A stretch of DNA of 32,000 nt from a bacterium. Lineage in GTDB: Bacteria > Bacillota > Clostridia > TANB77 > RGIG9151. Where the stretch lies: positions 1 through 32,000 of the forward strand of contig CAVHFU010000011.1 of assembly GCA_963635575.1 (NCBI GenBank). The letters are read 5' to 3'. The notes below the pieces were generated by a model. It did no database searches. It was not told where the DNA came from and was given only the letters and a program-made list of their open reading frames with translations. The position numbers were made by a program, and so were the translations under genes. This document shows positions 12,286-28,489 of this stretch, one piece after another (positions within the stretch are counted from its first letter, which is position 1; each line of letters opens with the position of its first letter).

Positions 12286-12483
12286 TTACTTGTTAAGTTG
12301 TGAAAGAATTTCGTTTACGTCTACGCCATGTGCTTCACAAGCTTCTAGTAAAGTTTCCATTTGTGCGGAAGGGCAACCCAAGCAATGCATTCCCATACTT
12401 AATAATACAGGTGCTGCTTCTTCTCCGCAAATTTCTAAAATTTCGCCAATTGTCATATCAGCAGTAACTTTTTCCATTTTCAT
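12286..12483 (-). CDS. DUF1858 / hybrid-cluster-protein-associated redox-disulfide domain protein
   Basis: This small protein contains TIGEIL...MHCLGCP...ETLLEACEAHG, typical of that family. The start is ATG 12483 or 12477. The track's longer start at 12519 has no RBS. Confidence 0.65.
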   Translation of the reverse strand: MKMEKVTADMTIGEILEICGEEAAPVLLSMGMHCLGCPSAQMETLLEACEAHGVDVNEILSQLNK

Positions 12484-12566
12484 CTCGCCTTTCTTACATA
12501 AGATGTTAGTATTATACAACGTTTTTGAAAAAATATAAAGTATTTATAGAAAAAAATAAAAATGTG

Positions 12567-12595
12567 TGGACAAATGTTAAAAGTTGGAATATAAT
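12567..12595 (+). promoter_or_regulatory. SigmaA-type promoter of the Tad-like operon
   Basis: TGGACA (12567-12572), a 17-nt spacer, then TATAAT (12590-12595). An AAAGGAGGTG RBS follows, then ATG 12643. Confidence 0.6.
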
Positions 12596-12642
12596 TTAGT
12601 AAATTAATGCATTAATGTTAGAAAATGTAAAGGAGGTGACTT

Positions 12643-12963
12643 ATGAAGAAAAGAGTTGCTACAATCTTTACGTTTTGTGTTTTGATTATGACTGTATCGT
12701 TTGGGGCAACATATCCGACGATTATGAATAACTTAAAGAATGCCTTGACGCAAATTCAGTCTTGGCTTGTTGCAATTGCTACTCCGGCGGCTGCAATTGG
12801 CGTTATTACAGGAGTGCTTATAAAGAAGTTTAGTTTTGGTGATACGGAAAGAATGCTTACCGGTAGGAGACTTATACGTTCTTGTTTCGTTTCATACGGA
12901 GTTGTTGTGGGAATTGACTTGATTTTAAAAGCGATTACGACTTTTGTTACAAAAAAATCGTAG
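12643..12963 (+). CDS. Small exported two-helix membrane protein with VirB2/TrbC-pilin-like architecture; candidate major subunit
   Basis: 106 aa with a strong RBS. It has a Sec-type signal peptide (MKKR-VATIFTFCVLIMTV-SFG/A). The mature part is a short polar N-terminus, hydrophobic helix 1 (WLVAIATPAAAIGVITGVLI), a basic loop (KKFSFGDTERMLTGRRLIR) and hydrophobic helix 2 (SCFVSYGVVVGIDLILKAI). There is no class III G/xxxxEY Flp motif. The coding call is solid; the family assignment rests on architecture only. Confidence 0.5.
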   Translation: MKKRVATIFTFCVLIMTVSFGATYPTIMNNLKNALTQIQSWLVAIATPAAAIGVITGVLIKKFSFGDTERMLTGRRLIRSCFVSYGVVVGIDLILKAITTFVTKKS

Positions 12964-12983
12964 TGCGGTATTGCTTATATGGG

Positions 12984-13012
12984 AAGAGAGGCGTACATTG
13001 CCTCTCTTTTTT
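12984..13012 (+). terminator. Intra-operon intrinsic terminator/attenuator directly after the subunit gene
   Basis: A 9-bp stem AAGAGAGGC / GCCTCTCTT with a 7-nt loop is followed by a T-run. It lies 21 nt after the stop codon and 18 nt before the next gene's ATG. Confidence 0.75.
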
Positions 13013-13030
13013 AAATTAAAGGAGAAGGAT

Positions 13031-13852
13031 ATGGGAAAAATTGAAGCGATTATAGCGAGTATTATGGCGATTAAAGAAGGGGCAGACGAACTTGGGAAAT
13101 TGTTTTCTGTGACTATATCAGGTAAATTTTATAGTGCAATGGATAAAATTACTTTTTTAGATAGTAAGGCACTTGGGATAGGGAGTAACGGGAAGATTAT
13201 TGATGGAACAAGTACACTTGGCGAGGCTGTTTGTAATTTAAGTAATTTAGTGATATGGGGCGTGTTGTTACTTTATTGTTTTTATGGTTTGTTTCATTAT
13301 TTTTTGTCTAGGAAGTTTGAAATGCCAATGAAGGTTTTTATAAGAAGTGTTGTTTTTGGAATTTTGGTAAATTCAGCTTTTTTTATTTGTTTTTCGGCGG
13401 TTTATTTTACAGAAAATATTACTCAATACATTATTGAATTTTGTGGCGGCGAGACGTCATTTTGTTATTTTGAGAATGCAAAAGATGATTTACAATTAGA
13501 GGTTGATACGGATAGTGACAATGTAAATATTTTTACTGCCGAAGATTTAATAAAAGTTTCTAATTATTTTATGACATTTGTTTTGGGGATAATGCTTGGA
13601 ATTAGATTTATTTTAATAAAGGTGTTAATTATTCTTTCACCTATATTTTTTGCTTTGGGGTGCTCTACTATTACCGAAAAGTGGCTAAAAAGTGGTGTGA
13701 TTTTATTTTTGAAACTTTTGTCATTTCAAGTAGTTGCCGTAATAGTTTTGGAAATTTTTAAAAAAATAAATTTTGGGGAAGAGGCTATTTTACAGATTAT
13801 GCTGATTTCGGCAATGCTACTGAGTGTAAAAGCTATTAAAAAAATATTTTAA
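13031..13852 (+). CDS. Polytopic membrane protein (about 6 TM) with VirB6/TrbL-like topology
   Basis: The start is ATG 13031 with an AAAGGAGAAGG RBS. The track's upstream extension from 12944 runs through the terminator. A ~75-aa soluble N-terminus is followed by TM pairs, an acidic loop (ENAKDDLQLEVDTDSDNV) and further TMs. The family call comes only from position after a VirB2-like gene and from topology. Confidence 0.4.
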   Translation: MGKIEAIIASIMAIKEGADELGKLFSVTISGKFYSAMDKITFLDSKALGIGSNGKIIDGTSTLGEAVCNLSNLVIWGVLLLYCFYGLFHYFLSRKFEMPMKVFIRSVVFGILVNSAFFICFSAVYFTENITQYIIEFCGGETSFCYFENAKDDLQLEVDTDSDNVNIFTAEDLIKVSNYFMTFVLGIMLGIRFILIKVLIILSPIFFALGCSTITEKWLKSGVILFLKLLSFQVVAVIVLEIFKKINFGEEAILQIMLISAMLLSVKAIKKIF

Positions 13853-13913
13853 AACTATTAATTAAATTTTAACTAAAGCCGATTAGAAAATTGAGAAAGG
13901 TAGGTAGGTTAAT

Positions 13914-14765
13914 GTGAAAATTTCAAGAGTGAGGCACGTAGTAATAACATGTATTATATTTTTGATTATAATTGCACTTATAATAACAGTGTATAATAAT
14001 CGTTTGGAGGCTATTGCCCAAAATACGGAGGAATATGTAAATAGGGTTGTGGCTACCGAGGACATTAATCCAGGCACTTTAATAACTGAAAATAATGTGA
14101 AGTTAGTTCAAATACAAGATGTGGTAAAAACTGACGGTTTGGTTTATAGACTAAATCAAATGGATCAAGAAAGAGAATCAGTTGATAAAACAAACGAATA
14201 TAAGAATATGCTTATAGAAGGTAAAATAAGTCCTTCAACTTCTTCAGATGACAGATGGGCAATAGGCAAAACCGCTGTTAACAAGATCCGCAAGGGTGAA
14301 CTTGTAGTTACTGACGATTTAAGATTGCCGGAAGATATGACTTCAAGTAACGAGAGAATATATAATATATCTTTCGACTCTTCCACAACAGGTGGGTACA
14401 ATGTTAAAGTAGGCGACAAAGTAGATATTTGCTTATTGTATAATGATAATGCAAAGGCAATAAAAGAATACCAAAATTTAGAGCAAAATAAGGTTATTGA
14501 TATTATTTTGGCTAAAAAAGAAATCATAGATATAAGAGATGAGGCTGGCAATAGTCAGGTAAATAATGCAGCTGTTGTGCCTGGCTATATATGTTTCAAA
14601 TTGACTTATGATGAAATTAATAAGGTGGAACTAGCTAAGCGACAAGGTAAAGTTTTCGTTGGAATTGTTGAAACGTATCTTGATGATGCGCATGCTGAAA
14701 CATTTATGCAAGGTGTTACATTGCCTACTTTTGAAACACCTATAAACGAAACGGTTGAGCCTTAA
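13914..14765 (+). CDS. cpaB: Flp-pilus assembly protein CpaB/RcpC-like (N-terminal TM, SAF domain, RcpC domain)
   Basis: GTG start. It has a TM anchor (VVITCIIFLIIIALIITVY). SAF-like motifs are present (VVATEDINPGTLITENNVKLVQI and GKTAVNKIRKGELVVTDDL). RcpC-like motifs are also present (ERIYNISFDSSTTGGYNVKVGDKVDICLLY and KLTYDEINKVELAKRQGKVFVGIV). Confidence 0.75.
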   Translation: MKISRVRHVVITCIIFLIIIALIITVYNNRLEAIAQNTEEYVNRVVATEDINPGTLITENNVKLVQIQDVVKTDGLVYRLNQMDQERESVDKTNEYKNMLIEGKISPSTSSDDRWAIGKTAVNKIRKGELVVTDDLRLPEDMTSSNERIYNISFDSSTTGGYNVKVGDKVDICLLYNDNAKAIKEYQNLEQNKVIDIILAKKEIIDIRDEAGNSQVNNAAVVPGYICFKLTYDEINKVELAKRQGKVFVGIVETYLDDAHAETFMQGVTLPTFETPINETVEP

Positions 14766-14784
14766 GTTAACATGATTTTAAAAA

Positions 14785-14807
14785 AGGCGGTGTGTTTTTC
14801 ACCGCCT
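14785..14807 (+). promoter_or_regulatory. GC-rich intercistronic hairpin between the cpaB-like and minD/tadZ-like genes
   Basis: An 8-bp stem AGGCGGTG / CACCGCCT has a 7-nt loop and no clean T-run afterwards. This suggests an mRNA stability or processing element, or a weak attenuator, rather than a full terminator. Confidence 0.5.
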
Positions 14808-14837
14808 GTAAAATATATATTTGAAAGGACGATATTT

Positions 14838-15683
14838 ATGGAAGATAGAAATCCAAAAGTTATTTCTGTTGGAAGCGTGAAGCATGGGCAGGGAGTTACT
14901 ACACTTGCATATAATTTAGCTTATAAGTTATCAACATTATTGCCAAAGAAGATACTTATTGTTGATGTTAATTATTTGTTTAAGGAAATGAGTTATTTAG
15001 CTGAGCAAACTAATAAAAATGGAATTGATGATTTAATTTCTATGGTTAAAACTCAAGAATTAAGCCAAGAGATATTTATGTTGCATACCGAGGAAATTAA
15101 TAGAAATTTAAGAGTTATTAATTCTACACAAATCGAAACATTAGACTACATAAGAAAAAATGACAAGTATTTGCTTAAGGTTTTGGATGAAGCTAAAAAG
15201 TATTTTGATGTTATAGTTGTGGATGCTTCAGCGGGAATTAAAAATTCGATTACTGCTGAATTATATGAGTATAGCGATGTGTTTGTAAATATTTTAACTC
15301 AAAATGCTTACACAATAGATTGGTACACGAAGCATGAGAATTATAAGAATGATGAAAAGGTTGTAAATGTAATAAATATGTATGAGGAAGACATTTATCC
15401 TGATTATGGCGATATAAAGAAAGAATTTAAACTTGAAAACATGATACTTTTGAGATATTCTAAACTGTTTAGACATTTTTATAACCAAAAAATATTAGAT
15501 CCTTTCTATAAGACTGAGGATTTATTTAATAATGATTTTTCACAATTAATTGTGAAGATTGGCGAAAAAATCGGATTAAAAGAATTGGCAAAGTTAGATA
15601 TTGTAAATGATAACATGTTAATAGATGTTAAGTATAATAATAAGAAAAAAGGATTTTTTAGCAGATTGTTTGGCAAAAAATAG
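14838..15683 (+). CDS. MinD/ParA-family TadZ/CpaE-like protein with a degenerate P-loop and a MinD-like C-terminal amphipathic helix
   Basis: The start is ATG 14838 with a GAAAGGA RBS. The deviant Walker A reads VGSVKHGQGVTT against the MinD pattern SGKGGVGKTT: the signature Lys is kept and the P-loop Lys is replaced by Val. A Walker B-like FDVIVVDAS is present. The C-terminus KKKGFFSRLFGKK resembles the E. coli MinD membrane-targeting sequence KKGFLKRLFGG. There is no N-terminal receiver-like domain. Confidence 0.7.
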   Translation: MEDRNPKVISVGSVKHGQGVTTLAYNLAYKLSTLLPKKILIVDVNYLFKEMSYLAEQTNKNGIDDLISMVKTQELSQEIFMLHTEEINRNLRVINSTQIETLDYIRKNDKYLLKVLDEAKKYFDVIVVDASAGIKNSITAELYEYSDVFVNILTQNAYTIDWYTKHENYKNDEKVVNVINMYEEDIYPDYGDIKKEFKLENMILLRYSKLFRHFYNQKILDPFYKTEDLFNNDFSQLIVKIGEKIGLKELAKLDIVNDNMLIDVKYNNKKKGFFSRLFGKK

Positions 15684-15703
15684 ACTTTGTGGAGGGAAAA
15701 AAT

Positions 15704-17164
15704 ATGGCGTCTCAACAAGTACTTTTACAAGACATAATTGAATCCATAAAAAATATAATGGAAAATTATAAGGAAGATAAAGAGTTAAAATTATTGCATC
15801 AAAAGAAAATCGACCAAGCAGCGGCGGGTGGAGTTGAAGCTAAGAGTTATGTAAAAGAGGAGATAATGAAAGTTTGTTTAAAAGACCTTAATACTAAAAT
15901 AACCGAGGAAAATATAGACAGCTTAATAAAGCAATATCATGTGAATTATTATGAAAATATATATGGGGATGACCCGGATGATAGGTTTTGTCAACTTTTT
16001 GAACATATGGTGTTATCTGAAAATGATGATTTTGATGTAAAGATTGAGAGACTTGTACAAATTATTTACCAAGAGCTTTACGGACTCGGAGTAATTGATG
16101 AGCTATGTGAAGGGCACATTGATGAAACAGGTGTAAATGGTAAGGATTATATATGGATTCAAGTTGGTGGTTTAAAGCGTCAAATGAAAAAACTCCATTT
16201 CCAATCTCAAGCCATTTTGCAGAAGAAAGTTTCAACTGCGATAAGTTTTGATAGTAAAAATGATATAACTGCCAGTGAGCCCATTGTTTACTGCCAAAGA
16301 ATGAACGGAAGCCGTGTTACTGCGGTTATTCCTCCGGTTGCAAAATACCCTATATTAAACATCCGTCACTTCCACTTAGCCAATGTTACTAAGTATGATT
16401 TGGTTGATAAAGCTACTTTGACAAAAGATGCGGTAAGGTTTATTGAGTTAGTATTTAAGGGTAGACCTAATTTTCTAATTATAGGTCAGCAAGGTAGTGG
16501 TAAATCAACATTACTTAGAGTGCTGTTAAATGAAGTATCTGATGCTATTGGTATAGGTACTATTGAAAATATGTTTGAGCTTAACCTGGATGATTATTAT
16601 CCTAACAAAAACGTAATTGCTTTGCAGTCTACTGAAAAATTCCCAGCAGACAAGCTATTCGAGTTGATGCTGAGACAAAACAGAGATATTGTGTTACTTG
16701 GAGAAATTCGTTCTTCAAATGAGGCTGTTGAAACTATAAATGCGATGCTTCGTCAGTGTCGTGGCTCTGCTGCTACATTCCACAGTTCTTCCCCTACTCG
16801 TGCAGTACACGACTTAAGAAACTTGTGTATGCGTAGTTCGCAGTATAAAGACTTTTTAACAGCACAATTTGACGTTGCTGATGCTATCGATTTAATCTTA
16901 GAGGGAAGACTTGATTATGAAACCGGTAAGAGATACATAAATCGTATATCTGTTGTTGAAGCAAATGACGAAGATTATAAGTTCGTTGTTAGTGATATAT
17001 TTAAATATAATCATGATAAAAAAGAATTAGAGCCTGTTCAATGCGTTTCTGATAAATTCATGGAGAAACTTTTGGATTATGGTATGCCTGTAGAGAACAT
17101 AGAAAAAATTAAAGAGATCTTTAAAGGCAAAGTAAAGCCGAAAAAGAAAAAAGATGAAGAGTAG
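15704..17164 (+). CDS. cpaF: CpaF/TadA-type secretion ATPase (T2SSE/VirB11 superfamily)
   Basis: The start is ATG 15704 with a GGAGGG RBS 7 nt upstream. It has Walker A (GQQGSGKSTLLRVL), Walker B (DIVLLGEIRSSNEAVE) and a His-box-like motif (GSAATFHSSSPTRAV). A ~250-aa N-terminal domain is typical of CpaF-length proteins. Confidence 0.85.
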   Translation: MASQQVLLQDIIESIKNIMENYKEDKELKLLHQKKIDQAAAGGVEAKSYVKEEIMKVCLKDLNTKITEENIDSLIKQYHVNYYENIYGDDPDDRFCQLFEHMVLSENDDFDVKIERLVQIIYQELYGLGVIDELCEGHIDETGVNGKDYIWIQVGGLKRQMKKLHFQSQAILQKKVSTAISFDSKNDITASEPIVYCQRMNGSRVTAVIPPVAKYPILNIRHFHLANVTKYDLVDKATLTKDAVRFIELVFKGRPNFLIIGQQGSGKSTLLRVLLNEVSDAIGIGTIENMFELNLDDYYPNKNVIALQSTEKFPADKLFELMLRQNRDIVLLGEIRSSNEAVETINAMLRQCRGSAATFHSSSPTRAVHDLRNLCMRSSQYKDFLTAQFDVADAIDLILEGRLDYETGKRYINRISVVEANDEDYKFVVSDIFKYNHDKKELEPVQCVSDKFMEKLLDYGMPVENIEKIKEIFKGKVKPKKKKDEE

Positions 17165-17181
17165 AAAGGCGGGAAAATGCG

Positions 17182-18138
17182 ATGGGTGATAATGCTATTC
17201 AGACTGCCGATATTATGACAAAGCTTGGAAGTGGTTTATTAGTATTTATTTTAGTGGCAGTTTTCATTTTACTTGCAGTTGTTGTGTATATAATATATGT
17301 GGAGAAGAAAAATAGTTCTTGGCTTAACCAAAGACAGAGTGCGATAAAAGCAGTTTACTCGCTAAAAAGTGTTCCTTTTTTGTATTCTATTCAAACAAAA
17401 ATAGCTAATAAATTTGCTATTACTAATACTGGAACAAAGCAAGAAAACGAGAAGTATGCTTTATATGTTATGGCGTTTATTGGGATAATGGCAATAAGTA
17501 TAGTTTATGGATTATGGGGATTTGTTAATCAGTATCCATACGCAATAATACTTTTACTTGCTATAGGTATTGTTATTCCATGGATGCTATTTAATATTTT
17601 CTATGAAGCGCAGCTCGCTAAGATGATTAAACAGCTTCCGCAAGCTATTGATGAATTTGCAAGTTCATACAGAAAATCTAATAAGGTTTTTAATGCGTTA
17701 AAAGATTCATACCAATATATGCCTAAGGTTGTGTCTAAAGAATTTGAGCGACTGTATAAGTCATATAATATTGACTTTGAAGAAGGTGTGGAGTATTTTA
17801 GAGCTAGAGTAAAGAATGACTGGGCAGGGATCTTTGCAAGTTTACTTCTTATTAACTATACAAAGGGTGGTACAATTATATCGCAGTTAGATGATTTAAA
17901 TACAGAAATTGAAAATGATATAATTGCTAAGGATAGAGTTAGAAGTAAAATGTTGGGATTTAAGCTAGTGGCACTTTCAAGTTTAGTGTTGGTTGTTTTG
18001 GCCATATTTGCTAATATGATGATGTCTGAGTCTGCGAAGGAATATTATATGAATGTCGCAGGACAGCAAGAGATAATTGTGGCATTAACAGTTGGATTTA
18101 TAACGTTCTTGTGTATGATGTTAGTAGAAAAAATATAA
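17182..18138 (+). CDS. tadB: TadB-like platform protein (T2SSF domain)
   Basis: 318 aa. It has an N-terminal TM, two central TMs, then a cytoplasmic T2SSF-like segment (KQLPQAIDEFASSYRKSNKVFNALKDS...INYTKGGTIISQLDDLNTEIE...) followed by C-terminal TMs. It lies immediately downstream of the ATPase. Confidence 0.75.
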   Translation: MGDNAIQTADIMTKLGSGLLVFILVAVFILLAVVVYIIYVEKKNSSWLNQRQSAIKAVYSLKSVPFLYSIQTKIANKFAITNTGTKQENEKYALYVMAFIGIMAISIVYGLWGFVNQYPYAIILLLAIGIVIPWMLFNIFYEAQLAKMIKQLPQAIDEFASSYRKSNKVFNALKDSYQYMPKVVSKEFERLYKSYNIDFEEGVEYFRARVKNDWAGIFASLLLINYTKGGTIISQLDDLNTEIENDIIAKDRVRSKMLGFKLVALSSLVLVVLAIFANMMMSESAKEYYMNVAGQQEIIVALTVGFITFLCMMLVEKI

Positions 18139-18154
18139 AGAGGTGATAGGAGAA

Positions 18155-19327
18155 ATGACAACTAGTATAATAATGAGCTTGATTATTGCACTGATTATAA
18201 TTTTAACATTAACGCTATTAGTTTTATGCATTAGGCAACCCCAACAAAGCAAAGTCAAAAGTGACAAGTTTACTTTGGAGATGCTTTCTTATTCACCTAT
18301 TTTTTCAAAAATTGTTGACGCGATTATTCCGCCAGCAGAGGATAGAGAGTTTCGAAAAAATGAAAGGCTAATAAGTGATTCCGGATATAACATGACTATG
18401 AGGGAATTGTATTTCTTAAAATTAGTAATTCCTATCATGCTAGTAATAGTATTTTTATCTATTTATTTCATTAACAGGCAAGTATATGTTGATGCTATAA
18501 TAACAGATAGTTTGACTAAGTCTGTTGATGTCTTGGGAAGTAATGATGTAAATGAAAAAGAAGATTCAAGTGAGCAAAAGAGTGAGCTTGAACAGGCCAA
18601 AAGAGATACCTATGATGTTATTAATAACTTCGTGGATAAACAAATCTTAAAGAGTGAAGATGCGATTGCTGCAAAACAAGCTATTCAGGAAGCACTTTTG
18701 GCTAATAATTTGGCTAATGAGTCAGATGTTTATTATCAAACAGAAGAGATGTACAATAAAATTCAAAAGATTCAACAGGCACAGCAAATTAATCCGGTGA
18801 CTATTTTATTTATTGTTTTAGCTTCATTTGTAGGATTTGTTGTGCCGGATGTGTTCCTTACACTTGCTAGAATGATTAGATATCAGTCGTTTGATAATGA
18901 AATTATTGCTTTGGAAATGCTTACCATTTTGGTTGGCTCAATTGAGAATGTTACGGTAAAAGAAATTTTAAGAATTTTATCTCTTAACAGTAAGGCTTTT
19001 AAGAAAAACTTTGAAAAAGCATTGCTAGAATATCCTATCGATTTTGAACAGGCATTAATTAATCTAGGTGATAGCAGTAAAAATAAAGATTTTCAGGCTC
19101 TTATTTCTACGTTAAGACAGTGTGCTACGTCAGATAAGTATGCTGCCCTCCAAACTCTTCAGAGACGAAGAATTAGTAGAAAAGAGTATAGAAAACTTAT
19201 GGAAGAAAAAAAGATAGAGACAAAGATGTATATTGGATTTATTTTGCTAATTCCTGTTTTATTTTTCTTAGCTAAGTTACTATTATCGCCATGGCAAGAT
19301 TTGATGAGTAGCAGTGGATTAATGTAG
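18155..19327 (+). CDS. tadC: TadC-like platform protein (T2SSF domain) with a ~100-aa hydrophilic insertion
   Basis: The start is ATG 18155, with a GAGGTG RBS 9 nt upstream; GTG 18143 is also possible. The T2SSF-like segment runs ARMIRYQSFDNEIIALEMLTILVGS...ALINLGDSSKNKDFQALISTLRQC...RRRISRKEYRKLMEEKKIETKMYIGFILLIP. A Glu/Gln-rich helical insert (NDVNEKEDSSEQKSELEQAKRD...KIQKIQQAQQ) lies between TM2 and TM3. Confidence 0.7.
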   Translation: MTTSIIMSLIIALIIILTLTLLVLCIRQPQQSKVKSDKFTLEMLSYSPIFSKIVDAIIPPAEDREFRKNERLISDSGYNMTMRELYFLKLVIPIMLVIVFLSIYFINRQVYVDAIITDSLTKSVDVLGSNDVNEKEDSSEQKSELEQAKRDTYDVINNFVDKQILKSEDAIAAKQAIQEALLANNLANESDVYYQTEEMYNKIQKIQQAQQINPVTILFIVLASFVGFVVPDVFLTLARMIRYQSFDNEIIALEMLTILVGSIENVTVKEILRILSLNSKAFKKNFEKALLEYPIDFEQALINLGDSSKNKDFQALISTLRQCATSDKYAALQTLQRRRISRKEYRKLMEEKKIETKMYIGFILLIPVLFFLAKLLLSPWQDLMSSSGLM

Positions 19328-19343
19328 AATGATGGTATGTAAG

Positions 19344-19386
19344 AGACTGTAAAAGACTAGAAATAGTTTTCTGCAGTCTTTTTTCC
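19344..19386 (+). terminator. Rho-independent terminator ending the Tad-like operon
   Basis: Hairpin AGACTG...CAGTCT (alternatively AAAAGACT / AGTCTTTT) is followed by a T-run, 17 nt after the tadC-like stop. Confidence 0.7.
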
Positions 19387-20138: not shown

Positions 20139-20465
20139 ATGCAATATAAGGAAGAGTTGATTAATGTTGCTAACAGCTTTTGGGAGATTAAAAGAAATAA
20201 TAAAGAAGATATTATAAATAGAATACAAGTACATGCAATAAATCAAGTTAAGGATGGTTTCACTTCTTTTAGAATTAATAAGTTAAAACGTGATGATGAA
20301 AAGTTCTTAAAGGAATGGGCGGATATGACCAATGCAGATGTCAAGGTTATTAAATTTAGATGCTTTGAAAATGAGAAGAGATATTTGGTGAAGCAATATC
20401 TTGTTGACTTGAAAGGTTGTATCGAGATGGATTATGAAAGTGAAGGAAAAACTTTAATTTTGTGA
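20139..20465 (+). CDS. Hypothetical cytosolic protein (108 aa)
   Basis: It has an AAGGAGG RBS 7 nt upstream, no TM helix or signal peptide, and no family I recognise. Confidence 0.55.
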   Translation: MQYKEELINVANSFWEIKRNNKEDIINRIQVHAINQVKDGFTSFRINKLKRDDEKFLKEWADMTNADVKVIKFRCFENEKRYLVKQYLVDLKGCIEMDYESEGKTLIL

Positions 20466-20571: not shown

Positions 20572-20829
20572 ATGAAGAAGGTTATGTGTTTGGCAGTAAG
20601 TATGTTTATGTTATTAAATTTGTCTTTTGCGGCTACATTGAATCTTAGAACTGCGAAGAATTTAAGCGTAGAAAAAAGCACAAAGATAACAGTTAATATG
20701 AAGGATAGAATTAAACTGAATTCGGGAACGTCGGACGTAGTAGAAATGAATCCAATTAAAATGAGAATTGGTGAAGATGAGCCTATTCCAGTTCCTACAC
20801 CTGTTAGACCTGTTTTAGAAATTATGTAA
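20572..20829 (+). CDS. Small secreted protein (85 aa) with a Sec signal peptide
   Basis: It has a GAGGAGGAG RBS and the signal peptide MKKVMCLAVSMFMLLNLSFA/A. The C-terminus is Pro-rich (EPIPVPTPVRPV). The gene is bracketed by its own promoter and terminator. Confidence 0.65.
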   Translation: MKKVMCLAVSMFMLLNLSFAATLNLRTAKNLSVEKSTKITVNMKDRIKLNSGTSDVVEMNPIKMRIGEDEPIPVPTPVRPVLEIM

Positions 20830-27796: not shown

Positions 27797-28489
27797 ATGG
27801 TATTATCTTCGTTTGTATTAAAAATTATAGCGATATTTTCGATGACATATGATCATGCAATAAAAATTCTTCCCGGATTATCTAAACTTCCGTTTGAATT
27901 TTGGATTCCGGGGAGAGTAGCTTTTCCATTATTTTGCTTTTTGTTAATTGAGGGAGTTGTGCATACGAGAAGTATAAAAAAATATGCCATTAGTATAGGC
28001 ATATTTGCAATAATTTCCGAATTTGTATATGATTTTGTGTTCCATAATACGTTTTTAGACTTTTCAACTCAAAATGTGCTTTTTGAATTGCTATTGGGAT
28101 TACTGGTTGTATGGCTTTATAAAGTGTTAAAAGAAAAGCAAAAAGGAGAGTTTATAATTTTTCCTCTGCTTTTTGCGATTGTGCTTGCTACTGTATTGAA
28201 CTTAGATTACGGGATGGGCGGTATACTTTGTATTTCCCTATTCTATGTCGGATATGACAAGAAGGGATTTACAAAATATTTAATATACTTTTTTGCAATA
28301 CTTATGACGGCAACAAATATTCAAAACACATTAGTTATGGCATTGCAATTGTATAGTTTACTTGCGTTATTTCCAATATCTTTATATAACGGAAAACTAG
28401 GGTACAAGTTTAACAAATATGTATTTTATGCTTTTTATCCGGTTCATTTACTAATTTTATATGCAATAAGATTACTTATGTTACATTAA
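27797..28489 (+). CDS. TraX-family membrane protein
   Basis: 230 aa and polytopic. The N-terminal motif is LKIIAIFSMTYDHAIKIL, and the C-terminal motif FYAFYPVHLLIL is typical of the TraX family. The ATG lies 1 nt after the tex stop. Confidence 0.7.
   Translation: MVLSSFVLKIIAIFSMTYDHAIKILPGLSKLPFEFWIPGRVAFPLFCFLLIEGVVHTRSIKKYAISIGIFAIISEFVYDFVFHNTFLDFSTQNVLFELLLGLLVVWLYKVLKEKQKGEFIIFPLLFAIVLATVLNLDYGMGGILCISLFYVGYDKKGFTKYLIYFFAILMTATNIQNTLVMALQLYSLLALFPISLYNGKLGYKFNKYVFYAFYPVHLLILYAIRLLMLH

Follow-up and report, generated by a model that had tools for sequence, protein, structure and literature searches.

The assembly of type IV filaments and that of type IV secretion systems (T4SSs) are regarded as distinct, with nothing in common beyond a distantly related ATPase fold. 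Here, we describe a seven-gene operon (genes g1–g7) in a 32,000-nucleotide stretch of a Clostridia genome (contig CAVHFU010000011.1, positions 1 to 32,000; hereafter the window) that, judged by its protein families and gene order, appears to be a chromosomal hybrid in which a T4SS-derived pair, one gene VirB2-like and the other VirB6-like, is co-transcribed with a five-gene Tad core. The hybrid composition itself is real and conserved in at least five lineages, which we compared with further related loci (denoted by L-numbers). While the parts are of known kinds, both their combination and the underlying VirB2/VirB6 module, chromosomal and widespread, are new. An earlier reading of the window, made from the sequence only, had allowed that the seven-gene architecture might already be characterized; full-text literature searches returned no description of it, nor of the sister architecture presented below.

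The operon consists of seven co-directional open reading frames (ORFs) on the plus strand, spanning 12643–19327 and separated, from g1 to g7, by gaps of 67, 61, 6, 5, 17 and 4 nucleotides. It is preceded by a putative sigma-70-like promoter (TGGACA-17-TATAAT, 12567–12595, plus strand), which is the top plus-strand site of the region and is recognized purely by its agreement with the consensus (11 of 12 positions), and is closed by an intrinsic terminator (19341–19386, plus strand) comprising an 18-pair hairpin and a T-run (−23.7 kcal/mol, z = −6.4). The gene count and the coordinates of the promoter-to-terminator unit that the sequence-only reading had delimited, seven genes at 12567–19386, are correct.

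The first gene (g1, 12643–12963, plus strand) encodes a VirB2/TrbC-like pilin-type subunit of 106 amino acids (aa), with a Sec signal peptide predicted to be cleaved around SFG/A and two hydrophobic helices joined by an invariant basic loop (KKFSFGD-ER). By itself, g1 matches the T4SS_pilin family PF18895 at E = 4.4e-4 and 20.7 bits (gathering score 26.6), with the match spanning model positions 4–71 of 71. Among 50 members of its family, 45 match PF18895 (best 7e-7) and 15 match TrbC/VirB2 PF04956, with no competing Pfam family matched by more than three members. Relatives of g1 number more than 1,300, and an alignment of 50 of them shows an unusually conserved mature part in which TPAAA and KKFSFGD are invariant. 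AlphaFold2 (AF2) models g1 as a helical hairpin (predicted local distance difference test score (pLDDT) 78.7), and a Foldseek search with this model, the structural comparison put forward by the sequence-only reading, returned no Protein Data Bank (PDB) match at E < 0.2, which is uninformative for a fold as simple as a hairpin of two helices. The VirB2-like assignment is supported by family-level profiles and not by structure; it upholds the earlier likening of gene 1 to VirB2/TrbC pilins from its Sec signal, two helices and basic loop.

The second gene (g2, 13031–13852, plus strand) encodes a 273-aa polytopic membrane protein, TrbL/VirB6-like, in which hydropathy and AF2 helices point to 5–6 hydrophobic helices; its ATG start is preceded by an AGGAG site, the mechanically called ORF starting at 12944. 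Taken alone, g2 matches no Pfam family, TrbL included, and a word-based homologue search with it recovers just 13 close relatives: g2 evolves fast. It aligns end to end with a 277–293-aa protein located after g1 in other loci, and scores 96 bits (E about 1e-25) against a hidden Markov model (HMM) built solely from the g1 partners of the loci in which the pair accompanies a type IV coupling protein (T4CP-type loci, below). Within this partner family, PF04610 TrbL is matched by 28 of 74 members (best 7.8e-7) and TrbL_4 by one, and a Pfam scan of the 74 found no rival family with more than three members. The AF2 model of g2, built from 12 sequences, reached a pLDDT of 47, too poor for a fold search. 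As with g1, the VirB6-like assignment is supported at the family level and not by structure, and the earlier proposal that gene 2 encodes a VirB6/TrbL-like protein with about six transmembrane helices gains its backing from these profiles.

Assigning the remaining five genes to a Tad-type core is justified by domain content. The g3 product (13914–14765, plus strand; 283 aa) is CpaB/RcpC-like, with one N-terminal membrane helix followed by SAF (E = 1.8e-7, above the gathering score) and RcpC (E = 2.4e-6, 27.9 bits against a cut-off of 28.8) domains, and matches the CpaB model TIGR03177 at E = 2.8e-12. The g4 product (14772–15683, plus strand; 303 aa) is a TadZ/CpaE-like protein of the MinD/ParA family (AAA_31, 35.7 bits, above the gathering score), with weak NCBIfam matches to MinD and tyrosine-kinase families; its homologues measure 275–280 aa, and its true start may be an internal methionine at about 14838. 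The third core gene, g5 (15689–17164, plus strand; 491 aa), encodes a CpaF/TadA-type secretion ATPase (T2SSE, E = 6.4e-20) carrying a Walker A motif (GQQGSGKST), a Walker B motif (DIVLLGE) and a His box (FHSS). Its NCBIfam scores, all under the cut-offs, are 90 bits for TadA-type TIGR03819, 84 for VirB11 and 81 for TrbB, and against the sequences of solved structures it scores 89 bits with CpaF (E = 2e-24), 53 with archaeal GspE, 36 with FlaI and 34 with VirB11. For these three genes, the CpaB/RcpC, MinD/TadZ-like and CpaF/TadA assignments of the sequence-only reading, including its SAF, Walker and His-box motifs, were confirmed.

Its claim of two T2SSF-domain platform proteins holds only in part. 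The TadB-like platform protein g6 (17182–18138, plus strand; 318 aa, five hydrophobic helices) itself matches T2SSF at E = 0.12, and its homologues do so at 2.2e-5 (24.8 bits, cut-off 25.2), 0.002 and 0.028, over the same stretch each time. The platform-like membrane protein g7, in the TadC position (18143–19327, plus strand; 394 aa), has no Pfam match, and an exhaustive search for its relatives gave 225 representatives, of which 91 were scanned and one matched T2SSF; its membership of that family is unproven. Its one link to g6 is an hhalign comparison with the g6 family (63% probability, E = 7e-5), which places g7 residues 222–330 on g6 residues 120–228, co-linear with the T2SSF region of g6. 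Searches with the g6 and g7 family profiles against PDB sequences gave nothing relevant.

Several components expected of one or other parent system were looked for and not found, within 32 kb for the window genome and about 10–20 kb around the locus for each of the other hybrid genomes. No Flp-like or KGGIET-type prepilin was detected in the window by a motif scan (ribosome-binding site plus G/xxxxEY or KGGIET leader), and tblastn with eight small prepilin-like proteins of sister loci was negative in the window, L006, L010 and L011. No A24 prepilin peptidase was matched among the window ORFs, and tblastn against the window with the A24 peptidase and the minor-pilin-like proteins of a sister Tad locus (L092, below) revealed neither a peptidase nor TadE/G-like minor-pilin genes; none of the five hybrid loci contains a prepilin, A24 peptidase or minor pilin within about 10 kb. 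The absence of Flp prepilin and A24 peptidase near the operon, previously asserted from the sequence, is thereby extended to the whole window, and that of a secretin is borne out by Pfam scans of the window's larger ORFs. On the T4SS side, Pfam and NCBIfam scans of the window ORFs gave no VirB4-type match (AAA_10, CagE, VirB4), and VirD4-like and VirB3/PrgI-like queries from sister loci found no homologue in the window.

The origin of the g1–g2 pair is illuminated by its relatives. Scanning one genome per species for relatives of g1 yielded at least 541 matching stretches; in the best 80 loci, which were inspected, ORFs were called and classified by BLASTP. All 80 come from metagenome-assembled genomes of uncultured gut or rumen Clostridia, and 78 of these 80 share one architecture, in which a DUF1858 gene on the opposite strand is followed by genes for a T4CP-like ATPase, g1, a g2-like protein and a PrgI-like protein, with no Tad genes accompanying g1–g2 (for example L001:8249–11516 and L008:8270–11496, among L001–L089; the slot equals window 12286–13852). 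The coupling-type ATPase (570 aa) is TrwB/TraD-like, with an above-threshold TrwB_AAD_bind match of 42 bits. The PrgI-like protein (95 aa, two helices) is matched by PrgI in 9 of 57 cases and by TcpE in two; PrgI and TcpE are VirB3 equivalents. DnaD-like and DnaC-like genes usually lie 3′ of the PrgI-like gene, and no VirB4 was seen in these loci. By gene content, the T4CP-type module appears to be a chromosomal, non-mobile mini-T4SS devoid of VirB4 and relaxase. In the window, too, a DUF1858 gene (12286–12519, minus strand; Pfam DUF1858, 66.5 bits) is the divergent upstream neighbour, as it is in nearly all of the more than 80 related loci. It marks one chromosomal slot common to both architectures and is probably no component of the machine.

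In the hybrid architecture, the DUF1858 gene is followed directly by g1–g7, without the T4CP-like and PrgI-like genes. Only L010 and L011 among the 80 best loci are of this kind, as are the metagenome loci L006/L007 and L096/L095, so that at least five lineages carry the whole block (the window, L010, L011, L006 and L096/L095). The expectation that genes 1 and 2 would keep company with the ATPase set holds inside this small clade and fails elsewhere, where the T4CP-type arrangement prevails. Identity to the window across the hybrid lineages is 72–93% for g1 and 85–94% for g5, against 36–59% for g2 and 46–88% for g3 (L006, L010, L011 and L096); the fast divergence of g2 and g3 would fit surface-exposed or partner-specific parts. 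Since the downstream neighbours of the block differ (VanY/sigK, a zinc-ribbon gene, an insertion sequence (IS) element, dnaE), the seven genes travel as a unit. In the hybrid clade, g1 keeps every family-invariant residue and is therefore under selection without its usual ATPase nearby, and g2 lacks a C-terminal tail (…ANSFVREF-GG-ST…) that T4CP-type g2 conserves. A scan of metagenome contigs with g5 found two loci only, and no intermediate combining g1–g2, the Tad core and prepilins. Tad-like genes 8 kb from a T4CP-type locus (L056) were considered as a fusion intermediate and rejected, as they belong to a different, shorter subfamily. Right after g7, L010, which is from the genome most closely related to that of the window, encodes a 234-aa protein (L010:10927–11631) absent from the window; a zinc ribbon occupies its N terminus, and its hydrophobic helix, ending in …LLVAIPNVV…, recalls that of type IV pilins.

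The hybrid loci also share an expression signal. Between g1 and g2 of the window lies a GC-rich hairpin with a T-run (12981–13012, plus strand; −17.7 kcal/mol, z = −5.6), likely a partial terminator or mRNA-stabilizing 3′ end that would raise g1 output over that of g2–g7. A strong stem-loop follows the g1 stop codon in all five hybrid lineages, with unrelated sequences (L011:2525–2560, L006:578–600, L096:2975–3003 and L010:4320–4560, the last a structured insert of roughly 250 bp), and none was found in three T4CP-type loci checked. Its presence in all five suggests that g1 is the abundant structural product, as a major subunit would be.

Relatives of g5 form a tight cluster of 74–99% identity, beyond which identity drops to 36–40%. 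The nearest relative of the Tad core outside the hybrid clade, with an ATPase 82% identical, is a complete Tad locus without g1 or g2 (L092/L093). In L092, the five core genes recur, and after them come five tandem prepilins, 187-aa and 667-aa proteins and an A24 peptidase (151 aa, 35.6 bits), the prepilin-to-peptidase stretch occupying L092:14124–18241. The site of this locus is marked by the genes rpsO-pnp-yceD-rpmF-DUF512 … ispG. The prepilins (48–63 aa) carry a K-G-G-I-E-T-I-I-V junction of leader and helix and matched no Pfam Flp model; the two minor-pilin-like proteins have the same leader type, the larger also containing Flg_new repeats. The prepilin and peptidase genes lie about 400 bp from the core, which suggests a separable transcription unit. 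The locus of the 74% relative is also without g1 and g2, and relatives at 36–39% retain the core together with 50–55-aa hydrophobic proteins. From the hybrid loci L006 and L011 to the canonical L092, identity to the window passes from 86–89% to 82% for g5, from 75–81% to 65% for g6 and from 66% to 56% for g7. In Ruminiclostridium papyrosolvens (ATAY01000031; L090:1–15200), a Tad-like five-gene core whose ATPase is 36% identical to g5 comes directly 3′ of conjugation genes of the Tcp type, which encode TcpE, a VirB4-like ATPase (AAA_10) and an M23 peptidase. Past the core lie hydrophobic proteins of 51–67 aa that practically lack a leader, and the arrangement is possibly a Tad-type pilus on a conjugative element of a monoderm.

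Loss of the T4CP-like and PrgI-like genes coincides exactly with the presence of the Tad core, as a functional takeover would predict. We postulate, with confidence evenly divided, that a Tad motor module has replaced the VirD4-like and VirB3-like module and now energizes the VirB2/VirB6 pair. The complementary distribution at one slot, the conservation of g1, the movement of the block as a unit, the loss of the g2 tail and the hairpin after g1 are the comparative observations that point this way. Under such a takeover, g1 would be exported by Sec, cleaved by signal peptidase I and pooled in the membrane as a helical hairpin, in excess owing to the hairpin after its stop codon, and g2 would form the membrane base at which g1 subunits gather. 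A g5 hexamer, placed by g4 on the g6/g7 platform, would do the work of the VirD4-like ATPase of the sister species, lifting g1 from the membrane to build a short filament or conduit, which would cross the wall through a g3 assembly; a prepilin peptidase would then be needless. Such a machine could produce a surface filament or serve as a conduit for DNA or protein. DNA exchange is our leading guess, by analogy with the Ced/Ted importers and ComB, and the neighbouring dprA is a weak hint in the same direction. The fuller proposal, that in a monoderm a Tad motor and platform took over a mini-T4SS and assemble or gate a VirB2-like, Sec-processed filament seated on a VirB6-like base, within a VirB2/VirB6 system core to hundreds of gut Clostridia and perhaps importing or exchanging DNA as Ced/Ted do, is one that we hold tentatively, at somewhat below even likelihood.

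Several points weigh against the takeover. The closest non-hybrid Tad core belongs to an ordinary full locus that encodes five prepilins, two minor-pilin-like proteins and an A24 peptidase but neither g1 nor g2, and core identities fall smoothly from hybrid to canonical loci, giving no sign of platform remodelling in the hybrid clade, although extra platform divergence might be expected if these proteins handled a two-helix subunit. The sequence-only reading had supposed that VirB2-like polymerization dispenses with Flp and its prepilin peptidase; the prepilins and peptidase of the 82% relative, and the lack of extra platform divergence, make this less than certain. For the same reasons, a flp/tadV cluster elsewhere in the window genome is a live possibility and, as the view of each hybrid locus covers about 10–20 kb, flp, tadV and T4CP genes may lie elsewhere in these genomes. 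No type IV filament motor is known to assemble a VirB2-type pilin, and in T4SSs it is VirB4, not VirB11 alone, that is thought to dislocate VirB2. Finally, the VirB6 and T2SSF assignments stand on sub-threshold profile matches, and g2 has only the low-confidence model described above.

Much of this would be accommodated if the transcript served two systems: the Tad core as an ordinary Flp-type motor whose prepilins, minor pilins and A24 peptidase stayed behind at another locus or moved to one, and the VirB2/VirB6 pair as a separate device, acting alone or with a T4CP encoded elsewhere, such that co-transcription merely coordinates the two. A Tad pilus might, for example, join cells while a VirB2/VirB6 conduit moves DNA. 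We regard this as a minority explanation of appreciable weight. Its attraction lies in the adjacent prepilins and A24 peptidase of L092, in platform proteins that show no accelerated change in the hybrid clade, and in the precedent of Sulfolobales, where the Ups type IV pilus cooperates with the VirB2/VirB6-type importer Ced (PMC9905601, PMC11868833). It would, however, require three coincident events within a single clade (the T4CP gene and the PrgI-like gene both being lost, and the five core genes alone being inserted precisely), and it must reckon with five hybrid lineages that have no prepilin or peptidase within about 10 kb and with g1 and g2 conserved though their usual ATPase is absent from the locus. 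That g1 and g2 are neither pilin nor channel, being instead a small membrane pair that matches T4SS families through hydrophobic composition and serves as an unrelated accessory to a Tad core, seems to us improbable. The window-level matches are indeed under the gathering scores (g1) or lacking (g2), the Foldseek search with g1 gave nothing significant in the PDB and the g2 model is of low confidence, but the matches are family-wide and specific, that of g1 covers the whole Pfam model, and in 78 loci the pair is flanked by an above-threshold T4CP and a PrgI-like protein. Less probable still is that a mini-T4SS and a Tad locus rearranged to leave a decaying, non-functional operon. The locus does lack essential parts of each parent system, yet at least five diverged lineages keep all seven ORFs intact, with an ATPase 85–94% identical among them that retains its Walker and His motifs, with tightly spaced genes and with a conserved expression signal after g1.

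Compared with known machines, the operon shares with Tad/Flp systems (type IVc; Caulobacter Cpa and Aggregatibacter Tad) the core set and its order of CpaB/RcpC, TadZ/CpaE, CpaF/TadA and two polytopic proteins. Unlike them, its locus has no Flp-type prepilin, TadE/F/G-like minor pilins or A24 peptidase; the operon opens with a two-helix subunit of Sec type and a VirB6-like protein, belongs to a monoderm without a secretin and includes a g7 in which the T2SSF domain is not demonstrable. With VirB/D4 T4SSs, including the monoderm MPF-FA and MPF-FATA (mating-pair formation) types, it has in common a g1 that resembles VirB2/TrbC pilins and, judged by its family, a g2 that resembles TrbL/VirB6; in the T4CP-type sister loci, a VirD4/TraD-like ATPase and a PrgI/VirB3-like protein are present in addition. 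The operon differs in having no VirB4, VirB1-like or VirB8-like protein, relaxase or mobile context and, in the window, no VirD4-like ATPase; VirB4 is the one ubiquitous T4SS protein.

There is also a likeness in layout to the Ced/Ted DNA importers of Crenarchaeota, domesticated T4SSs with VirB4, VirB6 and VirB2 (PMC9905601). These are likewise chromosomal and non-mobile, combine one ATPase with VirB6-like, VirB2-like and small two-helix proteins, often include a MinD/ParA-family ATPase in the case of Ted (PMC9905601), and cooperate with a type IV pilus (Ups). The four-gene T4CP-type module resembles this domesticated arrangement. The comparison is one of layout, not sequence. Ced/Ted are archaeal and their ATPase is VirB4/HerA-like, whereas the ATPase is CpaF-type here and VirD4-like in the sister loci. 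The T4SSs of Patescibacteria (Saccharibacteria) also occur in monoderms and place Sec-processed pilins of the PF18895/PF04956 type beside T4SS genes, but they possess VirB4, VirB3, VirB6 and VirB8 homologues and arrays of 2–11 pilin genes, and no Tad components (PMC12102498). Patescibacteria excepted, monoderm T4SSs have been described as lacking VirB2 pilins (PMC12102498, PMC12857230). A strongly conserved, syntenic and chromosomal VirB2-like/VirB6-like pair in gut and rumen Clostridia, on the scale of the stretches counted here, would shift that view. An operon that supplies the motor of one assembly line in place of the other's ATPase offers a test of module interchangeability and of the roles of VirB6 and the platform. 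If the takeover is true, this would be the first machine to cross the two great pilus superfamilies and, if the system moves DNA, an unrecognized path by which abundant, uncultured anaerobes of the gut exchange genes.

The window is core chromosome of a spore-forming member of the Clostridia, with topA, dprA, the DUF1858 gene, a VanY peptidase, a pro-sigma-K-like sigma factor and tex flanking the operon. A mobile-element or phage origin of the operon was ruled out because GC content, which is low, is uniform (about 0.29–0.37 throughout) and the flanking genes (topA, dprA, sigK, tex) are housekeeping genes. A SpoIIIA-type sporulation channel, brought to mind by sigK and other sporulation genes nearby, was likewise set aside, as CpaB, TadZ and a CpaF-type ATPase do not match spoIIIAA–AH. 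The window also encodes, 8.4 kb 3′ of the operon, a TraX-family protein (27797–28489, plus strand; E = 2e-44); this is the family of the F-pilin N-acetylase. A pilin acetylase role for it was rejected, since the gene lies within 10 kb of no other related locus, and its presence near the operon is probably coincidental. Between the VanY and sigma-K-like genes are two small unannotated ORFs on the plus strand (20572–20829 and 20139–20465): the product of one, 85 aa long, has a clear signal peptide and a proline-rich C terminus, and that of the other, 108 aa long, matches no family.

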